A stretch of DNA of 64,000 nt from contig BROI01000008.1 in the NCBI GenBank assembly GCA_027923505.1, positions 558,001-622,000 of the forward strand. The letters are read 5' to 3'. Made by a program: the position numbers and the translations under genes. How positions within the stretch are numbered: position 1 is the stretch's first letter; the number at the start of each line of letters is the position of its first letter. The stretch is from Mayamaea pseudoterrestris (Eukaryota). This document shows positions 5,772 through 60,420 of this stretch, piece by piece. The notes below the pieces were generated by a model, which was not told the origin of the DNA, did not search any database, and saw nothing but the letters and a program-made list of their open reading frames with translations.

Positions 5772-6108
5772 GGTGATTTCCGCCTTGTGTACTCAGTTTG
5801 TGAATCTGCTAGGTAGCCGTGGGCCATGGCGGTAGAGGGTAACTCGATGGTCGTCGAAGGTACAGTATTGTGATGGCAAGCGACTGACGCATTTCATGCG
5901 AGCGTCGTAGCGGTACTTTTAAGCCAATCAGAATACAAATTTGAGTTGGTAGAGCCCTTCACATACTGTAGTTAACTGCAAGCATGAACAAGTACAGTAC
6001 AAGTCTCCGGTGTTATAATCCATGCCATAATTATGTTCGGTTCCGTCTACCTATATGATAGCTTAATGTCCCGCATACTCAGAAAATGAGTGTCTCTCAG
6101 TTACACAA

Positions 6109-7170
6109 TTACGGAAGGCTCGGGCCCTCTATGAACGACATGTGTCGCTCATTTTCAATTAATTCGATCATTTTCAACTCAAGAAACTCCTCGAGTTGCT
6201 TGTATGGAGGAGGTGATTGTTTATCGTTGCTTCCTGACATAAGAGAAAACTTCTTTCTCGTTTCAGTGTCAATAAAGTAGCGAATCGTCGTCCATACCCA
6301 GCCAAACATGTGCGGAATGGGATAAACAAGTGCAGAACCAAGTCGCTCGGGAAAGTTGGATAATAACAAAGGAATTGTATGTTTTGCGAATGATATGAAG
6401 CCTGTTATTGGCATGTTGGGCCAGCCAACACCTGATCGCACATCGACAATGACACAAAGACGTTCCAGTGAATCGCGTTTTAATTTTTGGTCGCAGTAAA
6501 GAGCAATAGCGAGAGAGTACACCATAGTATCTGCGATTTGATCATCGATCAAACCAGGTAGTATTTGCAATATCCTATATTCCTGTCGACAAACGGCATT
6601 GGAGGGCATACGAGCCACGCGAGGCAAGTCAATAGCGAGTTTACCATGCGCATGTAGAGCCCTCGCCGCAGCAAGGTTCCATTCACCATGATCAGCATCA
6701 GCAATTGCAGTAGACATTATGTTGATATCTCGCGGCAATGGCTCATACTGGCTCTTCCACTGAATGTAGGAAGCGAGGGAGTCTGTCGATCGCTTCATGT
6801 CGCCGTTTCGTGCCGCCAAGAATCTAAATCGCTCTTCCTTTGTTGACTCTGAAACAGCTTCCTCAAGCATTGCTTGAGCCTCATCTTGAGCTTGCTTCAA
6901 ATGAGTCGTTTCGTCTGGTTGTGATGCTTCGTCCTCTGAATCCGAGAGGGTCGATTGGTGAGGGACCTCGTCATGTCGAAGCAAGAGCGATTTCGAAGCT
7001 TCATCCTGCACCTCCAATGTAGATAGCTGTCGTCGGAGTTTCCAGGACCATAGCGATACCAGGAAAGCAAGCAGATTGGTAGTTACAGCAACCATTGCAA
7101 AAACAAGGTTCATGTTCGTGGGTTCTTCGCTTCGAGTCTTTCGATTTGTTGGGTGATTGGCAATTGGCAT
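6109..7170 (-). CDS. CRAL-TRIO/Sec14-like lipid-binding protein with N-terminal membrane anchor
   Basis: ERFRFLAARNGD (CRAL-N-like), CVIVDVRSG, and LLSNFPERLGSALVYPIP...WTTIRYFID. The start could be 7170 or a nearby downstream ATG. Confidence 0.85.
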   Translation of the reverse strand: MPIANHPTNRKTRSEEPTNMNLVFAMVAVTTNLLAFLVSLWSWKLRRQLSTLEVQDEASKSLLLRHDEVPHQSTLSDSEDEASQPDETTHLKQAQDEAQAMLEEAVSESTKEERFRFLAARNGDMKRSTDSLASYIQWKSQYEPLPRDINIMSTAIADADHGEWNLAAARALHAHGKLAIDLPRVARMPSNAVCRQEYRILQILPGLIDDQIADTMVYSLAIALYCDQKLKRDSLERLCVIVDVRSGVGWPNMPITGFISFAKHTIPLLLSNFPERLGSALVYPIPHMFGWVWTTIRYFIDTETRKKFSLMSGSNDKQSPPPYKQLEEFLELKMIELIENERHMSFIEGPSLP

Positions 7171-52964: not shown

Positions 52965-53085
52965 GATACTGTGAACAGAAAAAGGTGGATGATGCGAAAC
53001 TCGAGTGAGTGATGATGCTCATTCAAATTTTGTTGTCGAGAGTGGAAACGATGTCGGTTCGGGACTCAGGACGACGTCCATCAAC

Positions 53086-53353
53086 TGTTGATGCCTCTAT
53101 GGGGAGACACTAGGAATGATCAAAACGATTGACGTGAATTATTATGAGCGGCAATTGTCGCACTGCCTGCCGAGTTCTATCGCTACTTGTGACCGGTGGG
53201 AACCTCGGTTGGCTCGCTGATCTAACCGGCTGTCGCTGAGGCATAACTAAAACACATGTGCTAGGCAACGGTGGAGGCTTCACTTAGGTGGAAGCCGAGC
53301 CAGTGCAGCTTCCTTGGATACCGGATAAGGAACCCGGAAGTGGAGTATCAACA
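53086..53353 (-). repeat. 3' LTR (268 bp)
   Basis: Identical by eye to 58644-58911. Preceded on the sense strand by the short PPT-like CCAGGGTG (53361-53354). Confidence 0.97.
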
Positions 53354-56300
53354 CACCCTGGCAAGGAAGGTGTCTCGGTAGAGACTGTTGCCTTGGGAGG
53401 ATCCTTTACGTAACGGGAGCGCATCTTGCGGTGATGAACTGCAGGATGGTGCTTGGTAAAGTAATCCGCTAAATTGTCGCAGCCGCGGCGCCAATGGAGA
53501 ATAAATTGGCCTTGAGCGATGCGATCTTTGATCCAGTAGAAACGCATGTCCATGGCTTTGGAGCGCTTGTGCTTGACGGTTCCGTTGGCAATGCCAGCGG
53601 CACAGCTATTGTCTGTTTGAATGGGCGTTGGCGGTTGAGGATGGCCGAGCTCTTCAAGTGCTGTGCGGAAAACGGTGGCGTCTTTGGCACAATGGAAGGC
53701 GCCGCCTAGCTCCGCCTTGGCGGCGGAGGAGACAACGCATTTTAATAGCTCGCATCCAACATGGATCGCTCCATTTTCAGGAGGAGGAGGAGCATCAGGA
53801 GATGGTGCTTTCAATGATTCCGCTGGCATGGAGCTGAGGAAATGGAAAGCAGCGATGCGAGAGCGGGCTTTTGCAGCCGTCAAGTAGGAGGCGTCGGTGT
53901 GACAATGGAGGACCATATCACTGGCGTGAAACACAAGAATGGCATCTTGATGACTGGCGGCGTAATCAAGGAATTGAATTAAAGCTTTCTCAGTCTTCTT
54001 GGTGCCTTTGGCCTGTGCCGCTCCGAGTTCATTAACGGCCGTTAGCATGGTATTGTCAATGGCGCGTCCATAGAATAGAAACTTGCCGCAGACTCGCTGG
54101 ATAATGACGCGGCCTTCAGGTGGAAGGGGATCTGTGCAATCATCATCAACATATTGTTGTTTGGCGCCATAGACTGGGGCAGTCCATGGATGAGGCGAAT
54201 CTTGGGGCTTGGACGGCGGCGGATGCTGGAGCTCGTTCAAGGCAGTGGCGACGTAATTGGGCATGCTCATCTCAAGTATGCGCTTGTCATAGTCCCACTT
54301 GAGTGTCATGCCACAGAAGCGGGTGCCTGCGCGATCGACTGTAATGGTATACTGAGAGCGGAGGACGTCAAGTAAGTGCTCGGCGTGGTCGTCTCCAACG
54401 TAGCGGATGCCGAAGTCGTCAACAATGAGCGCAAAGGCAACTGGACGAGTCTTGTGCTTGAAGAGACCAGGAACATGTTCAGAGTCATTGTAACCATTGG
54501 AGCGAAGGAGCTTGCGTAGTCGTAAATAGGAGAGGTAACCAGCTTGTTGTAATCCGTAAATCGTGTTGCTGAGTTCCGCTACGACGTTTCCTTTGCGTTC
54601 AATTTGGGCGATATTGTATTCTGCCTTGATGCATTCGGGTAGAAGGCGAACGGGGATATTCATGTACTCTTTGTCAGGCATTGGTGTACCGAGGTAGAAG
54701 TTGCTAATGTCGGCTGCCATGAATTTTGCTCCTGGGGTGGAGAGCACGCTGTTGAGAAGGAGCTTGACAATGGGTATGTCGGCGCACGGAGACGCTGTGG
54801 TGCCTTCATAAACAAGCTTGTCACCGCCTGCTGTAATGCGAACGCGGTGCTTTTCAACTTTGTCGGGTTTAATGGCGACGACGACGCGAGGATAAGTGAC
54901 TTTGCGCCCGGCAGGAACGGCGTTCGGGCTGATGAGTTTCATGGTATTGGTCCCTTTGGTGTCGTGCTTGGCGCATCCTTGAGCCAGGCGGCCGATTTCC
55001 ATGGCCATGCCTCTGTCCCATTTTGCAGCATCGGGGCCCTTGATGAGGTGGCGATACTCGAGAGCGGCGCCGGTGACTGGATCAATAACGGTGTTGGCTT
55101 GGAGCTTTTTGGCCGACGGACAACTGATGCCACGCGCGCCGCGAGTGACGCGTTTGGAGGCCGTATAATCAGCCTGTGTGACGCCAACTGGAAGGTAAGT
55201 CGTTGCTTTGGTGCTCTTGTAGGGACTGGAACGACGGAAATTGGATCCTTCGTTGGCAGTGAGCTGGGCGAGGCGGGCGGCCTGATCCTTTTTCTGCAGG
55301 CGGCGCCGCTGCGCAGGATTCTTCGTTCGACTGACATACGTCCAGGGCTCGTCGGATGATGTATGGTCCAAGTTAAAACGGACGCGAGCGACGGTGGGCG
55401 CCATGGTGGATTCGGCCAAAGGATCGGCCGCGGCCACCCTGGGAGGTGTCGCATCGGTGGTTGAAGTAGGTGCGTTCGCGTTCGCATCCGGCACCCTGGG
55501 AGGTGTCGCAGTGGTGAGGGAAGGAGGTGCGTTCTCGTCTGCCACCCTGGGAGCTGGCGCAGTGGGCGCTTCTGTAGCTGGAGCGGGCTGAAAAGGCAAT
55601 TGTGATGGGGCCGCCGCTTCTGGTATGCTTTGTGGATCGGCATGAGGCGTTGGCGTGGCGGAGTCGGCGGTTGCTGGTGTCGGAGCGCCAACCTGAGTGG
55701 CTAGTGCCGCGGCGACACGCCGGAGCTCCTCCATGTGGCCAGCGTCGCTGGCAGCAACGGGACCACCTGTGGCGGACCAATTGCGTAGAGCACTTGTCAT
55801 GTCTTTAACTGCTGCGAGGAGGAGTTCCTGGTTGGAGGCGACTGGCATATTTGTCTGAGTAGGAAACCAGGCAAGGGTGTCAGCAATGCGTTCGGCATTT
55901 GTGTCGGTTGCATACACTCGATAGCAGCGGTAATGCTCAAGAGCTGGACCAAGATAATAACCATCAACACCATGAGGTGTGTGCGAGGCGCGGATGCTTG
56001 GTTTTTCATGTATGATGACTCGTGTGCCAGCGGGCGCGAGCGGCGTTTTGTTAAAGTCAAATGCGCCATGGAGCTGCGCGTGGGCCGAGAGCTTTGGATT
56101 GATTCTGGAGCCTCTTAAAAGATTAAGAGTCAAGACGCATTGTGGTAGCAGCTTGTCCCAAAGGTGCAATGGAAACTTGGGATCCGTGCCGCAAAGGGTC
56201 GCCGTGAAGTGATTGATGAACGTGCGAATGGCGCGCTCTGCAGCATTACGCCGATGAATGTGAGGCGGAGCAAGCTGGTAATCAACTGATTCAGACGCCA

Positions 56301-57348
56301 TGTAGTCTTTAAGAGCTTTGGAGGCTTCGTTGTCAAGGCGCTGCAGTTGTGGTTTGAGGCCGCGAGCGCAGAGCAACTTGTGAATCTTGGTATACGCTGC
56401 AAGGATGCTGGCGCCGCTCTTGTTCTTCATTGGTTCGACTAGTATGGCGTTGCTATCTTCATCATAGACAACTAGCATAACAGTGTTGCCAGAGCTGGAC
56501 GGTAACATGAAACGGCCAGTGAGATCGGAATGAATCTTTCCTGTCGCTTCGGTATAATTGGCGTAAACACGCATGGAACGAGTCGTGGGCGGGTCGTTCG
56601 GTGGCGGGTTCATATCAGTTGCTAGCTCATCATCAGCGACTGTAACTGAGTTGGCCTGTTTGGTGCTGCGATAGTTCTTGCGAGTTTGGTCGAGGTGTCC
56701 TTTTGCTGTGGCAGTGGAACGCGGGGGATAAGCTTTAACTTGGGCCGAGGTGACGGCTGGGAAAGTAGTTAGCCGGCCGGCGTCCAATGCTTTGCAAAGC
56801 GTAGAGACTGTAGGATAACCCAGACAAGCGCTAACGTAGGCGACTCGGTCGGCCACTGTGTTGAGCGGTTGATACATGTTGAGCGCGTAATTGACGCTGG
56901 CGGCTGGGCTGCCAGTGGGACGCTGCATGTTGACGGTCCAAAGCTTGGTGTCGGAGCTGCGAGTGCCTGCTAGAACAACTTTATCACCCTTTGTGACTGT
57001 AACTGCAGTGTCTGTAAAGATGGCGGAGCATCCATCGTCACACAATTGACCGATTGAAATGAGAGACTGCGTCATGTCGGGGAAGACGTGTGCTGTACAA
57101 GCCTCAAAGGAGCAACCGGGAAGGTCGAGTTGGACTGTATGAGTTGAATGCATTGTTGTTCCGTTGGGAACGTGGACTGTAAGACTTGGATTGGCCAATT
57201 GCTTGTCGGTGTATGGCAAGTGGCACGAGATGTAGTGTCCAGTACATCCGGTATCGGCTATGGCTAGAGGTATAGGCGGGGAGGAGACATCAAGTTCATT
57301 TAACTCAAGCTTATTAAATGAACTACTTGTAGATGCCGTCCCTCCGGC
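53284..57348 (-). CDS. pol: Retrotransposon Pol (protease, integrase, reverse transcriptase, RNase H), in frame with gag after a UAG
   Basis: PR IADTGCTGHY (upstream of the ORF-track start). IN SDLTGRF/LDNE/NAAERAIR. RT AADISNFYL, IYGLQQAG, LIVDDFG. RH HTDASY, AELG, QTDN, NLADYFTK. Confidence 0.95.
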   Translation of the reverse strand, partial: AGGTASTSSSFNKLELNELDVSSPPIPLAIADTGCTGHYISCHLPYTDKQLANPSLTVHVPNGTTMHSTHTVQLDLPGCSFEACTAHVFPDMTQSLISIGQLCDDGCSAIFTDTAVTVTKGDKVVLAGTRSSDTKLWTVNMQRPTGSPAASVNYALNMYQPLNTVADRVAYVSACLGYPTVSTLCKALDAGRLTTFPAVTSAQVKAYPPRSTATAKGHLDQTRKNYRSTKQANSVTVADDELATDMNPPPNDPPTTRSMRVYANYTEATGKIHSDLTGRFMLPSSSGNTVMLVVYDEDSNAILVEPMKNKSGASILAAYTKIHKLLCARGLKPQLQRLDNEASKALKDYMASESVDYQLAPPHIHRRNAAERAIRTFINHFTATLCGTDPKFPLHLWDKLLPQCVLTLNLLRGSRINPKLSAHAQLHGAFDFNKTPLAPAGTRVIIHEKPSIRASHTPHGVDGYYLGPALEHYRCYRVYATDTNAERIADTLAWFPTQTNMPVASNQELLLAAVKDMTSALRNWSATGGPVAASDAGHMEELRRVAAALATQVGAPTPATADSATPTPHADPQSIPEAAAPSQLPFQPAPATEAPTAPAPRVADENAPPSLTTATPPRVPDANANAPTSTTDATPPRVAAADPLAESTMAPTVARVRFNLDHTSSDEPWTYVSRTKNPAQRRRLQKKDQAARLAQLTANEGSNFRRSSPYKSTKATTYLPVGVTQADYTASKRVTRGARGISCPSAKKLQANTVIDPVTGAALEYRHLIKGPDAAKWDRGMAMEIGRLAQGCAKHDTKGTNTMKLISPNAVPAGRKVTYPRVVVAIKPDKVEKHRVRITAGGDKLVYEGTTASPCADIPIVKLLLNSVLSTPGAKFMAADISNFYLGTPMPDKEYMNIPVRLLPECIKAEYNIAQIERKGNVVAELSNTIYGLQQAGYLSYLRLRKLLRSNGYNDSEHVPGLFKHKTRPVAFALIVDDFGIRYVGDDHAEHLLDVLRSQYTITVDRAGTRFCGMTLKWDYDKRILEMSMPNYVATALNELQHPPPSKPQDSPHPWTAPVYGAKQQYVDDDCTDPLPPEGRVIIQRVCGKFLFYGRAIDNTMLTAVNELGAAQAKGTKKTEKALIQFLDYAASHQDAILVFHASDMVLHCHTDASYLTAAKARSRIAAFHFLSSMPAESLKAPSPDAPPPPENGAIHVGCELLKCVVSSAAKAELGGAFHCAKDATVFRTALEELGHPQPPTPIQTDNSCAAGIANGTVKHKRSKAMDMRFYWIKDRIAQGQFILHWRRGCDNLADYFTKHHPAVHHRKMRSRYVKDPPKATVSTETPSLPGCVDTPLPGSLSGIQGSCTGSAST
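57280..57345 (-). promoter_or_regulatory. Candidate readthrough-stimulating RNA stem-loop 3 nt downstream of the gag UAG
   Basis: Perfect 11-bp inverted repeat at 57293-57303 / 57314-57324 with a 10-nt loop, flanked by further pairings GGCAUC/GAUGUC and GGAGG/CCUCC. Confidence 0.65.
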
Positions 57349-58470
57349 CTATTCTCCTTGCGCGCGACTGCGTTGGTTGCGGTAGACGAAATTGGTTTCG
57401 TTGCCGCCCATCTTGTTGGCACTGGTGGCTGCCTCTTGGTGGCCTGGACTGCGACGGTTGCACTGCATGCTTGTATGTCCACAGTAGCCATGAGAATGAC
57501 AGTACTTCTTGACGCGAGGAGCGTTGTTGCCGTTGTTGTTGTTGCCTTGGTTGTTGTTGTTGCCATGGTTGTTGTTTGGCGGTGGCGGCGGATTTGCCGG
57601 CGCACGGTGTGTCGCAGCGATTTGCTCTCGGACAGCAGCTGCGACAGCGGATGCAAAGTTTGCCTGCGCCAAAAATCCAGCGTCTGCAACAGTCTTCTCT
57701 TGGCGGCGAGCTTTGTCCACACGCTTGAGCCAAGAGACAAAGGCTGGCCAGGTTTCAGCAGCTTGCCCTGGGATCTGTTGCTCAATGGCGCGAGCGTGCA
57801 AGTCGGCTTTGAACTGGCCAGTTGCAGCCATGGCGGCCACGGCAAAACGGATGGAGGTGGCGTCCGACATCGGGTCGTTGGTTGCTGCAGCAAGGCGACG
57901 AATGCGCTCCATCTTGCCAGTGTACGTTTCGACAGATTCACTGAGGTTGAACGGGTCGCTCGCCATGGCGTAGTTCGCCTCGATTTGCTGCGGCGTGGCG
58001 GTGCCGTACTCGTCCTTGATGTGCTGGCGAAGCTGAAGAATGGTGACTTCCTCCATACCCGTGGCTGGGTCCTCCAAAGACTGAAGATAGATGGAAGGAA
58101 TCGCCTTGACGACTTGCGCGATCAAAGCCGTGGCGACCAAGTTGTTCTTGTTGAAAGCAGTGAGGTCGGCGTTGAACGCGCGGTTGGCCTCGGCGATCTG
58201 TGCGCCAGTAGCTCCTGCTGGAATGTCGAGCACTGGGAATGCCACAGGAGCATAAACTTGCGCAGAGCGTAGAGCGTACTCAGCTGGTGTGACTACCAAG
58301 TGAACGTGGCCAGCGCCGCCGTTGCCGTACTGACTGGTGACGGAGCGCGCGTTCTGGAGGAGCTCCTTGTCAAACTGGAGCGCCTCATCGAAGGTAATGG
58401 TGCCAGTAGAGCCAAGAACGGTGAGAGTTTCCAGCGGAAAGACAATCTTGGGGCTGCTTGAATCCGTCAT
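57349..58470 (-). CDS. gag: Retrotransposon Gag
   Basis: 373-aa ORF with GGAGHVHLV (CoDi-like), an Asn-rich tract and the knuckle YCHSHGYCGHTSMQC. Confidence 0.92.
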   Translation of the reverse strand: MTDSSSPKIVFPLETLTVLGSTGTITFDEALQFDKELLQNARSVTSQYGNGGAGHVHLVVTPAEYALRSAQVYAPVAFPVLDIPAGATGAQIAEANRAFNADLTAFNKNNLVATALIAQVVKAIPSIYLQSLEDPATGMEEVTILQLRQHIKDEYGTATPQQIEANYAMASDPFNLSESVETYTGKMERIRRLAAATNDPMSDATSIRFAVAAMAATGQFKADLHARAIEQQIPGQAAETWPAFVSWLKRVDKARRQEKTVADAGFLAQANFASAVAAAVREQIAATHRAPANPPPPPNNNHGNNNNQGNNNNGNNAPRVKKYCHSHGYCGHTSMQCNRRSPGHQEAATSANKMGGNETNFVYRNQRSRAQGE

Positions 58471-58631
58471 GGTGACGAAGGGAAGAAGAGCGGAGGATCA
58501 CACTCGGAGGGAAGAGCTGTGGTGGCTCGATTCGTTCAGTCGCTGGATGCAAAAGACGAAGGTGGTAACGTGAGTGCTCTTTAGATTGTTAAACGAAAGA
58601 GTCAATGATGTTACTTGCCGGATATTATCAT

Positions 58632-58643
58632 ATAATTCACGTC
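58632..58643 (-). promoter_or_regulatory. Primer-binding site complementary to the element's own 5' LTR (candidate self-priming PBS)
   Basis: Sense GACGTGAATTAT directly abuts the LTR end and is the exact reverse complement of LTR segment 58700-58689. Confidence 0.75.
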
Positions 58644-58911
58644 TGTTGATGCCTCTATGGGGAGACACTAGGAATGATCAAAACGATTGACGTGAATTAT
58701 TATGAGCGGCAATTGTCGCACTGCCTGCCGAGTTCTATCGCTACTTGTGACCGGTGGGAACCTCGGTTGGCTCGCTGATCTAACCGGCTGTCGCTGAGGC
58801 ATAACTAAAACACATGTGCTAGGCAACGGTGGAGGCTTCACTTAGGTGGAAGCCGAGCCAGTGCAGCTTCCTTGGATACCGGATAAGGAACCCGGAAGTG
58901 GAGTATCAACA
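58644..58911 (-). repeat. 5' LTR (268 bp)
   Basis: Identical by eye to 53086-53353 and lies upstream of gag. Confidence 0.97.
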
Positions 58912-59034
58912 TCAACACAATCGCGACAATCCGCGACAGCTGTCAATCAGCATGATGGAGCGAGTGTGGCGTTTTAGGCAATATCTAACCGCACTACGTG
59001 ACATAGACAACGACGTGAAACATCAACTATAATC

Positions 59035-60420
59035 ATGTACATTCTTGGTTTGATTCTCTTGCTTTCCACCACGTTTTGCGTGCGCTCCAAACTGCGGAAC
59101 GTCGCACAAGCTGATGGAGCCCACGTCGGCCCCAACGACGACTCTACAGACATAATATCATGCCCTCATCATTGTCTAGAACAACAACGTTCGAATCATT
59201 CGACCAAAAAGCAAAATGGCCATCGTATTTTCTATCTCGTTGTGGTTCACAACAACCGGACGCTTCATGACGCAGTGCATTTATTGCGTGCTATTCGAGA
59301 CCCAAGAAACATCGTTGCTATACACGTCGACCAGAAAGCGAACGATCTGATAAAGAACAACGATTCCATTTTGCACAAGGAAGTAAAAGAATGTAGTTGC
59401 GGAAGCATCATACGTTTGGAGTCTGTCTACAATGTCAAGTGGAGTGAGTGGAGCATGAATTTGCCGACTCTATGGGGGTTGCAGCTGGCAGTGACAGAGT
59501 ACAAGGATCAGTGGGACATCTTTATCAACTTGTCTGGTGACACTTTACCAGTATACTCGACTGACATTATGGCGACGGTGCTTTCCGACCTTCCTTACAA
59601 CTTTGTCACGAGCAGCTCTTGCGAGACTGGCCTGCTGCCGACAAACGTTTATACCTTTCCTTCCTACTGGCACAAGCGCGCGCATTACACGCAATCAGAC
59701 ACATTGGCTGATCCCATCTTTGAGCACATTGATCAAGTAAATAAATCCTGGCGGAACACGACGATACAGACATATTTTGGCAGCCAGTGGATGATTCTCC
59801 AGCGCGACTTTTGTTCATGGGTGGTACAGCAACTTGGTGACCCGCAGAGCCTAGCGTCGCAGTATCGGGATTATTTGGTTAGTTCTGGGTTCTTAATGAC
59901 AGACGAAACCTTTTTTCCATCGCTACTTATGCAGGTCGACGAGTTTGCACAGTCGCTGCCGCAGTTGGGTGTGGAGGGTCATCTCTTGTGGCGGAATGGA
60001 TCGTCGTCGCAGATCAAGGCGGTGCGCTACGAACGCATGGATGAACATGTACCATCCGCTTTTGGTTGCGTTCCATTGAACCAACGATATGAAGTGCCGA
60101 ATGACACGAATGTCGATCAGCCTCGCCCATGGGGACCATACTTTCTTGGTGTGTACGACCTGGCTGGTGTTCGTGATTCTGGTGCCTTGTTTCTACGCAA
60201 AGTCTCGAGCCTCGTCGACCATAACATGGTTAACCTTTTCCCCGTCAAGCATTCGAGTCTGATCCCGAATATTTCTTGGCCATTCCATGTGGAGCTAAGT
60301 GGCAAGCCTAACTGGGAACGGATTAAGGCGAAAATGATGTTAGCACAGCGACAAGCGGCTGCCCATGACTTGAGCGAGCAGGATGAAATTGCTGAGGACA
60401 TCGATGAAGAGGAATTGTAA
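59035..60420 (+). CDS. Core-2/I-branching family glycosyltransferase (GT14, xylosyltransferase-like)
   Basis: Signal/anchor sequence, then FYLVVVHN, AIHVDQKA, WDIFINLSGDTLP, YFGSQWMIL and TDETFFPSLL. Confidence 0.88.
   Translation: MYILGLILLLSTTFCVRSKLRNVAQADGAHVGPNDDSTDIISCPHHCLEQQRSNHSTKKQNGHRIFYLVVVHNNRTLHDAVHLLRAIRDPRNIVAIHVDQKANDLIKNNDSILHKEVKECSCGSIIRLESVYNVKWSEWSMNLPTLWGLQLAVTEYKDQWDIFINLSGDTLPVYSTDIMATVLSDLPYNFVTSSSCETGLLPTNVYTFPSYWHKRAHYTQSDTLADPIFEHIDQVNKSWRNTTIQTYFGSQWMILQRDFCSWVVQQLGDPQSLASQYRDYLVSSGFLMTDETFFPSLLMQVDEFAQSLPQLGVEGHLLWRNGSSSQIKAVRYERMDEHVPSAFGCVPLNQRYEVPNDTNVDQPRPWGPYFLGVYDLAGVRDSGALFLRKVSSLVDHNMVNLFPVKHSSLIPNISWPFHVELSGKPNWERIKAKMMLAQRQAAAHDLSEQDEIAEDIDEEEL

Follow-up and report, generated by a model that had tools for sequence, protein, structure and literature searches.

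A stretch of 64,000 nucleotides of the genome of the diatom Mayamaea pseudoterrestris was analysed; it is referred to as the window and is numbered from its first base. It contains an intact LTR retrotransposon that is read on the minus strand. The parts of the element, with the evidence by which each was placed, are as follows.

53086-58911, minus strand: intact LTR retrotransposon, 5826 bp, defined by its LTR pair and target duplication
58911..58644, minus strand: 5' LTR, 268 bp, TGTTGAT...ATCAACA, a direct repeat (100% identical copies) with its boundary set by the target-site duplication
53353..53086, minus strand: 3' LTR, 268 bp, 100% identical to the 5' LTR
58916-58912 (upstream copy) and 53085-53081 (downstream copy), minus strand: target-site duplication GTTGA, 5 bp, read directly from the sequence
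58470-57349, minus strand: gag ORF, 373 aa, stop codon TAG at 57351-57349, in frame with pol
53284..57348, minus strand: pol ORF, 1354 aa, extending into the 3' LTR; the translation contains protease ADTG, integrase D,D,E, reverse transcriptase VDDF and RNase H TDAS
53354..53358, minus strand: GGGTG, a polypurine-tract-like end that abuts the start of the 3' LTR

The Pol motifs (ADTG, D..D..E, VDDF, TDAS) were found in copia order and were invariant across a 33-sequence Pol alignment. An initial annotation of this DNA had called the element copia, and the order protease-integrase-reverse transcriptase-RNase H agrees with that assignment. Integrase precedes reverse transcriptase, which is the copia and not the Ty3/gypsy arrangement; this sets the element apart from the Tf1/sushi chromoviruses, which combine the gypsy order with a chromodomain. 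The TG...CA ends of the LTRs and the 5-bp target duplication are those of Ty1/copia elements. Against Pfam RVT_2 (PF07727) the window Pol scored 30.2 bits (cut-off 31.6), and PF07727 is present in the precomputed annotation of many Pol relatives at 48-60% identity. Three named relatives of Gag were found (92, 86 and 64% identity), all of them from Mayamaea pseudoterrestris, and the named relatives of the element's proteins come from diatoms only (Mayamaea, Fragilaria). No Gag relatives were found among viral contigs, and no second copy of the element was found within the 64-kb window by tblastn or blastn.

The sequencing data covered were contigs from four runs of one study, and an empty-site contig was present in runs X1 and X2. 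It joins 53078 to 58910 and skips exactly 5831 bases, which corresponds to the 5826-bp element plus the 5-bp duplication. There is thus an allele without the element, which makes the insertion a recent one that is heterozygous or polymorphic. The identical LTRs and the empty-site contig indicate that the element has apparently been active recently. The element was placed in a gap of ~240 bp between two divergent ORFs, ~120 nt from either start codon, and its insertion site is, judged from the predicted ORFs, the promoter region of this divergent pair. One flanking ORF (59035-60420, plus strand) carries a Core-2/I-branching enzyme domain, and the other (52964-51762, minus strand) was without a Pfam match.

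The junction between the 5' LTR and the internal region contains the following features.

58705-58701, minus strand: initiator-like motif TCATA, matching YCAHW/TCAHW upstream of the 5' arm; predicted start at A58703 or T58702
58700-58689, minus strand: predicted self-primer, 5' arm ATAATTCACGTC within the LTR, from its perfect complementarity to 58643-58632 and the fold
[quoted passage not shown]
58643-58632, minus strand: predicted primer-binding site, 3' arm GACGTGAATTAT, from the first base after the LTR onward, placed by complementarity, fold and register in relatives

The initial annotation had paired these two segments in a perfect 12-bp complement, extendable to 16 bp with one bulge, and had placed the binding site against the LTR end with no spacer. 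Each of these points was recovered. The arms are perfect 12-nt reverse complements that stand 45 nt apart. The LTR was shuffled 20,000 times (mononucleotide); an anchored complement of 12 nt was reached in none of the shuffles, and the longest, of 10 nt, was seen 6 times. The LTR end was set by the GTTGA target duplication and is thus known independently of the hairpin, and the binding arm starts at the next base. For the 86-nt RNA 58705-58620 the folding energy was -24.4 kcal/mol, a z-score of -5.61, which was not equalled by any of 200 dinucleotide shuffles. This fold is a 16-bp stem with one bulged A, in which pairing beyond the 12 bp continues on the 5' arm up to 58705, across the bulge, and on the 3' arm to 58628. 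TGG, the start of a tRNA-type binding site, is absent after the 5' LTR, as had been stated. No tRNA genes were found in the 64-kb window or among the 20 of the 80 related loci that were scanned, and 58450-58950 gave no Rfam match at E<=1. Neumann et al. recognised candidate self-primers as stretches of the LTR that can pair, over 10 bp or more, with sequence beginning 0-5 bp beyond the 5' LTR (PMC6317226); the window element has 12 bp starting at 0 bp.

Related elements were collected by Pol similarity. The RT-RNase H region of Pol had 1579 relatives in the protein collection, two of which are named (Fragilaria crotonensis) and most of which sit on metagenome contigs of ~5.5 kb. The comparison set was 80 metagenome loci with 35-54% Pol identity, obtained via the 33-sequence Pol alignment. 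Among the 81 sequences (80 loci and the window), 35 were without the Pol N-terminus and 8 had it less than 900 nt from the contig start, leaving 38 that were analysable. Hairpins with perfect arms and a loop of 15-90 nt were searched for 600-2300 nt upstream of pol, and 20 dinucleotide shuffles of each region served as control. The best perfect arm was at least 9 nt in 30 of the 38 sequences, at least 10 nt in 24 and at least 12 nt in 17; in shuffled regions the mean best arm was 6.6-8.6 nt, with maxima of 8-13. Eight regions had arms below 9 nt. Five of these were only 328-575 nt long, and the others (L074, L078 and L079, which belong to the most distant group) had the region but showed no hairpin with arms of 9 nt or more at the junction. 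Two of the 30 were dropped: L050, in which the hairpin lies 951 nt from pol without an LTR-end match, and L051, which has its junction, with a 12-bp stem, at the opposite contig end.

The resulting 28 of 38 sequences (the window and 27 loci) have a perfect stem of 9-14 bp with its 3' arm at the expected place, 1109-2034 nt upstream of pol. In 18 of the 28, the heptamer that precedes this arm agrees with the inverted LTR start at five or more of its seven positions, for example ..TCAACA against TGTTGA.. and ..TCTAGCA against TGCTAGA... Where an LTR pair defines the boundary (the window, L070, L025 and L012), the 3' arm follows the LTR directly, with no base between them, in 4/4 cases; the target duplication of L070 is CTCCT. 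Whole sequences were also screened by a stricter rule, under which a hairpin had to have arms of 9 nt or more, a preceding A, an initiator-like motif on its upstream side and agreement with the inverted LTR start at 4/7 positions or more; 34 of the 81 sequences qualified, from 144 hairpins of that size overall. The junction hairpin of L010 is ambiguous. In related elements the LTR-abutting sequence can always pair with a segment of the same LTR 18-74 nt upstream, and the loop is 29-74 nt long in the 27 related loci, with many relatives at 29-32 nt. The initial annotation had also drawn a U5 stem within the loop. In the window the minimum-energy fold does include an inner stem (~58668-58662 with 58655-58649), but the second helix that had been proposed (58646-58650 with 58677-58681) was absent and the structure was not conserved in relatives: loop interiors of the 28 elements were not significantly structured (mean z -0.6; 2/28 below -2), and no inner helix was common to their minimum-energy thermodynamic folds.

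Three further observations were made on element ends in this sample. GGGTG followed by TG occurs in 75 of the 80 related loci, mostly once per contig, and the inspected cases have it at the pol end, as a marker of where the 3' LTR opens; GGGTG, conserved at the DNA level despite 35-54% Pol identity, probably marks the plus-strand primer end. Several metagenome contigs have identical ends, or an LTR that runs directly into the binding site. In L077, a distant relative with repeat copies at 16-214 and 5876-6081, the 3' arm of a 13-bp stem and five further bases lie inside both copies; either the LTR ends later there than in other elements, or the downstream copy precedes the leader of another element.

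Covariation of the two arms in related elements had been set beforehand as a check on the self-priming interpretation, and the outcome was clearly positive. Among the 28 binding sites there are 25 different 9-mers, each matching its own LTR. Pair 1 of the nine is mostly C-G (22/25) and pair 2 is T-A or A-T only, while each of the remaining seven positions is occupied by three or four Watson-Crick pair types. A binding site has an anchored complement of 9-14 nt in its own LTR and of at most 8 nt in the LTRs of other elements (600 non-self pairs). Choosing the best hairpins makes pairing within a locus true by construction; independent support comes from the LTR-end position together with the distance to pol, the cases defined by LTR pairs, the initiator motif and the non-self control. 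The stem and its register are conserved across the clade while its sequence is not. A host tRNA primer would keep the site constant, so the 25 distinct 9-mers argue against a tRNA primer shared by the clade. The conserved tRNA-complementary site of a tRNA-primed element was likewise not found, since TGG is lacking and the binding sites vary among the 28 elements. Within L075, two copies (300-420 and 6314-6434) are 98% alike, with five differences in 121 aligned positions. Two of these compensate for each other, a G>A change on the 5' side of the stem and a C>T change on the 3' side.

A transcription start near the 5' arm was predicted from an initiator-like motif. Kadono et al. proposed, as a consensus only, TCAH+1W as the diatom Inr-like motif (PMC4686930). 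Within the 10 nt ahead of the 5' arm, 26 of the 28 elements have YCAHW, at a distance of 0-8 nt; TCAHW is present in 20 of 28, compared with 6.6% of background windows. Nearly all elements have CTCATAA, CCCATAA or CTCACT just 5' of the 5' arm. The motif puts the predicted start 3-4 nt before the arm, both in the window and, as the commonest offset, in relatives, and would leave 2-4 unpaired bases ahead of the duplex. For the window the start is predicted at 58703 or 58702, within the range 58700-58705 that the initial annotation had given. No poly(A) end was found among the 80 fetched loci, and no contig beginning at the predicted start was found among the loci listed.

On this comparison, in which 28 of the 38 analysable sequences carry the stem, the self-priming interpretation of the initial annotation is supported. 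We consider it most likely that this intact, recently inserted Ty1/copia-type element primes its minus strand with the 5' end of its own RNA and not with a tRNA. The mechanism that we propose runs as follows. Transcription would begin at the initiator-like TCATA in the LTR, at about 58703/58702. Transcript bases at roughly 3-15 (58700-58689) would then fold over the 45-nt loop onto 58643-58632. By analogy with Tf1, the element's RNase H would cut after C58689 and so provide the primer 3' end at that base. The freed 3' end would be extended across 58644-58688 to give a strong-stop DNA of 45 nt. In the general model of reverse transcription, the primer is itself copied when the plus-strand strong-stop DNA is made. 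Here this step would rewrite the binding site from the 5' end of the transcript in each cycle; with the site rewritten from the 5' arm, the arms would stay complementary in each copy and drift together between families.

Other explanations of the stem were weighed. It could be a 5' leader structure for packaging, dimerisation or translation control, in an element that uses some other, unrecognised primer. The stem is stable, and retroviral and Ty1 leaders do have functional stems around the binding site. Its 3' arm, however, starts immediately behind the LTR in each of the four cases that have an LTR pair, and this is the one position that priming dictates. There is also no other conserved sequence after the LTR (25 distinct 9-mers among 28 elements, with variable sequence downstream), so no alternative primer site is visible. 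We regard a leader role in place of priming as unlikely.

A second possibility is that CTCATAA, which is A/T-rich, acts as a TATA-like box with the start ~25-30 nt beyond it. In that case the 5' arm would belong to U3, the RNA would contain only its 3'-LTR copy, and priming or cyclisation would proceed via the RNA 3' end. The motif nevertheless fits the proposed diatom initiator TCAH+1W (PMC4686930). Many loops are 29-32 nt long, and a start 25-30 nt downstream would leave under ~20 nt for R and U5 together. We hold this arrangement to be very unlikely. Short loops also count against self-priming from the predicted start, because loops of about 30 nt would leave little room for R.

Priming of the window element by a host tRNA fragment or another small host RNA, with the LTR complementarity merely masking or regulating the site, has a precedent in the half-tRNA priming of other copia lineages (PMC6317226). 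A host primer would fix the site, whereas the binding sites of relatives are unrelated to one another and are each matched by their own LTR; the TGG start is also missing. This explanation has, in our judgement, only a very slight chance of being correct. Chance complementarity, for which nothing speaks beyond the A/T-rich composition of the arms, was rejected as having next to no probability, given that no LTR shuffle in 20,000 reached 12 nt and that the structure recurs with covariation in 27 related loci.

Self-priming is established for Ty3/gypsy elements of the Tf1/sushi group (Tf1 and Tf2 of S. pombe) and is usually treated as their hallmark. To our knowledge, self-priming in copia elements has been predicted for one plant lineage only. 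[quoted passage not shown] The window element resembles Tf1 in that the 5' end of its own RNA, as predicted here, is complementary to a site abutting the 5' LTR, and in arm length (9-14 in the clade, 11 in Tf1). It differs in having the copia instead of the gypsy domain order, and in the 2-4 bases that would be left unpaired before the duplex at the predicted start, whereas the first 11 bases of Tf1 pair. The description as Tf1-like in the initial annotation holds for the pairing of an LTR segment with the LTR-abutting site; it does not extend to the 'pretzel', as thermodynamic folds gave one long stem without the two extra duplexes.

The plant lineage is TAR of Ty1/copia, including Houba and Osr-1, for which Neumann et al. 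predicted self-priming and credited Capy 2005 with an earlier self-primer proposal for Houba and Osr-1 (PMC6317226). The window element shares with TAR its Ty1/copia membership and the complement of at least 10 bp within 0-5 bp of the LTR, and the TAR prediction used the same kind of sequence evidence as is used here (PMC6317226); the host is a diatom in one case and a green plant in the other. Fungal GalEa copia elements also are without a tRNA-type binding site and have a Conserved Hairpin Site there instead, formed by a short palindrome and a nearby repeat downstream of the LTR, for which the authors describe finding no U5/LTR complement (PMC5445492). The likeness to GalEa lies in the copia type, the missing tRNA-type site and a hairpin at that position. 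The difference is that the stem partner here is inside the LTR, next to the predicted start. Elements primed by half-tRNA-iMet (Drosophila copia and Ty5; Osser and Bryco in plants) likewise have a non-TGG site directly after a copia LTR. Within each such lineage the site stays the same, since a host tRNA serves as primer (PMC6317226), whereas here it varies with the element's own LTR. The diatom CoDi elements Blackbeard and Surcouf (Maumus et al. 2009) resemble the window element in near-identical LTRs, one or no gag-pol stop and insertion polymorphism, and the main text of that founding paper does not discuss primer binding sites (PMC2806351). The initial annotation had left novelty to a literature check. 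The concept itself had already been predicted for plant TAR (PMC6317226); no published report of self-priming in diatom or CoDi copia elements was found in the literature covered, which includes few subscription journals. The diatom elements are a new clade within a known kind of priming, not a new kind.

Among the repeats of diatom genomes, copia elements predominate. In M. pseudoterrestris they account for most of the 19% repeat content (PMC9724779). If self-priming is the rule in a large clade of diatom copia elements, then it arose repeatedly, or it is older and more widespread than has been thought. It would also explain why binding-site finders based on tRNA would miss such elements. For annotation, element ends could be recognised by GGGTG|TG at the LTR start, the initiator and the complement of the arm at the LTR end. 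The window copy, intact and apparently active in a culturable diatom, offers a tractable test system.

The arrangement of gag and pol was compared in the same elements. The two are in the same frame, with one in-frame stop between them, in 26 of the 28 elements. The window has TAG (57349-57351) at this position, and the other elements mostly have TGA. A G-rich motif (GAGGGA, GGGG) usually lies ~6-9 nt 3' of the gag stop (in the window, down to 57335). This arrangement suggests stop-codon readthrough as the candidate Gag-Pol strategy of this copia clade. We think it likely that a widespread clade of diatom Ty1/copia elements, present in many aquatic metagenomes, replicates without a host tRNA. 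A single stem of 9-14 bp would form between the first transcript bases, set by the initiator, and the LTR-abutting site, without the accessory duplexes of Tf1. The binding site would be rewritten in each cycle, with the arms co-evolving fast as a family-specific barcode, and Pol would be made by readthrough of the in-frame stop. For diatom elements, no description of any of these features was found in the literature covered.

Two minor observations concern the window element itself. A contig from run X3 joins 53085-53563 to 58485-58642, in the order pol end, LTR, binding site and leader. Two tandem copies with a common LTR, a one-LTR circle, or no more than the route taken by the assembler through the repeated LTR could each account for it. 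At 55435-55589 a 47-nt unit is present as three degenerate direct copies (identity to the reference copy: 100, 85 and 62%), which encode part of a Pro/Ala-rich linker between integrase and reverse transcriptase.
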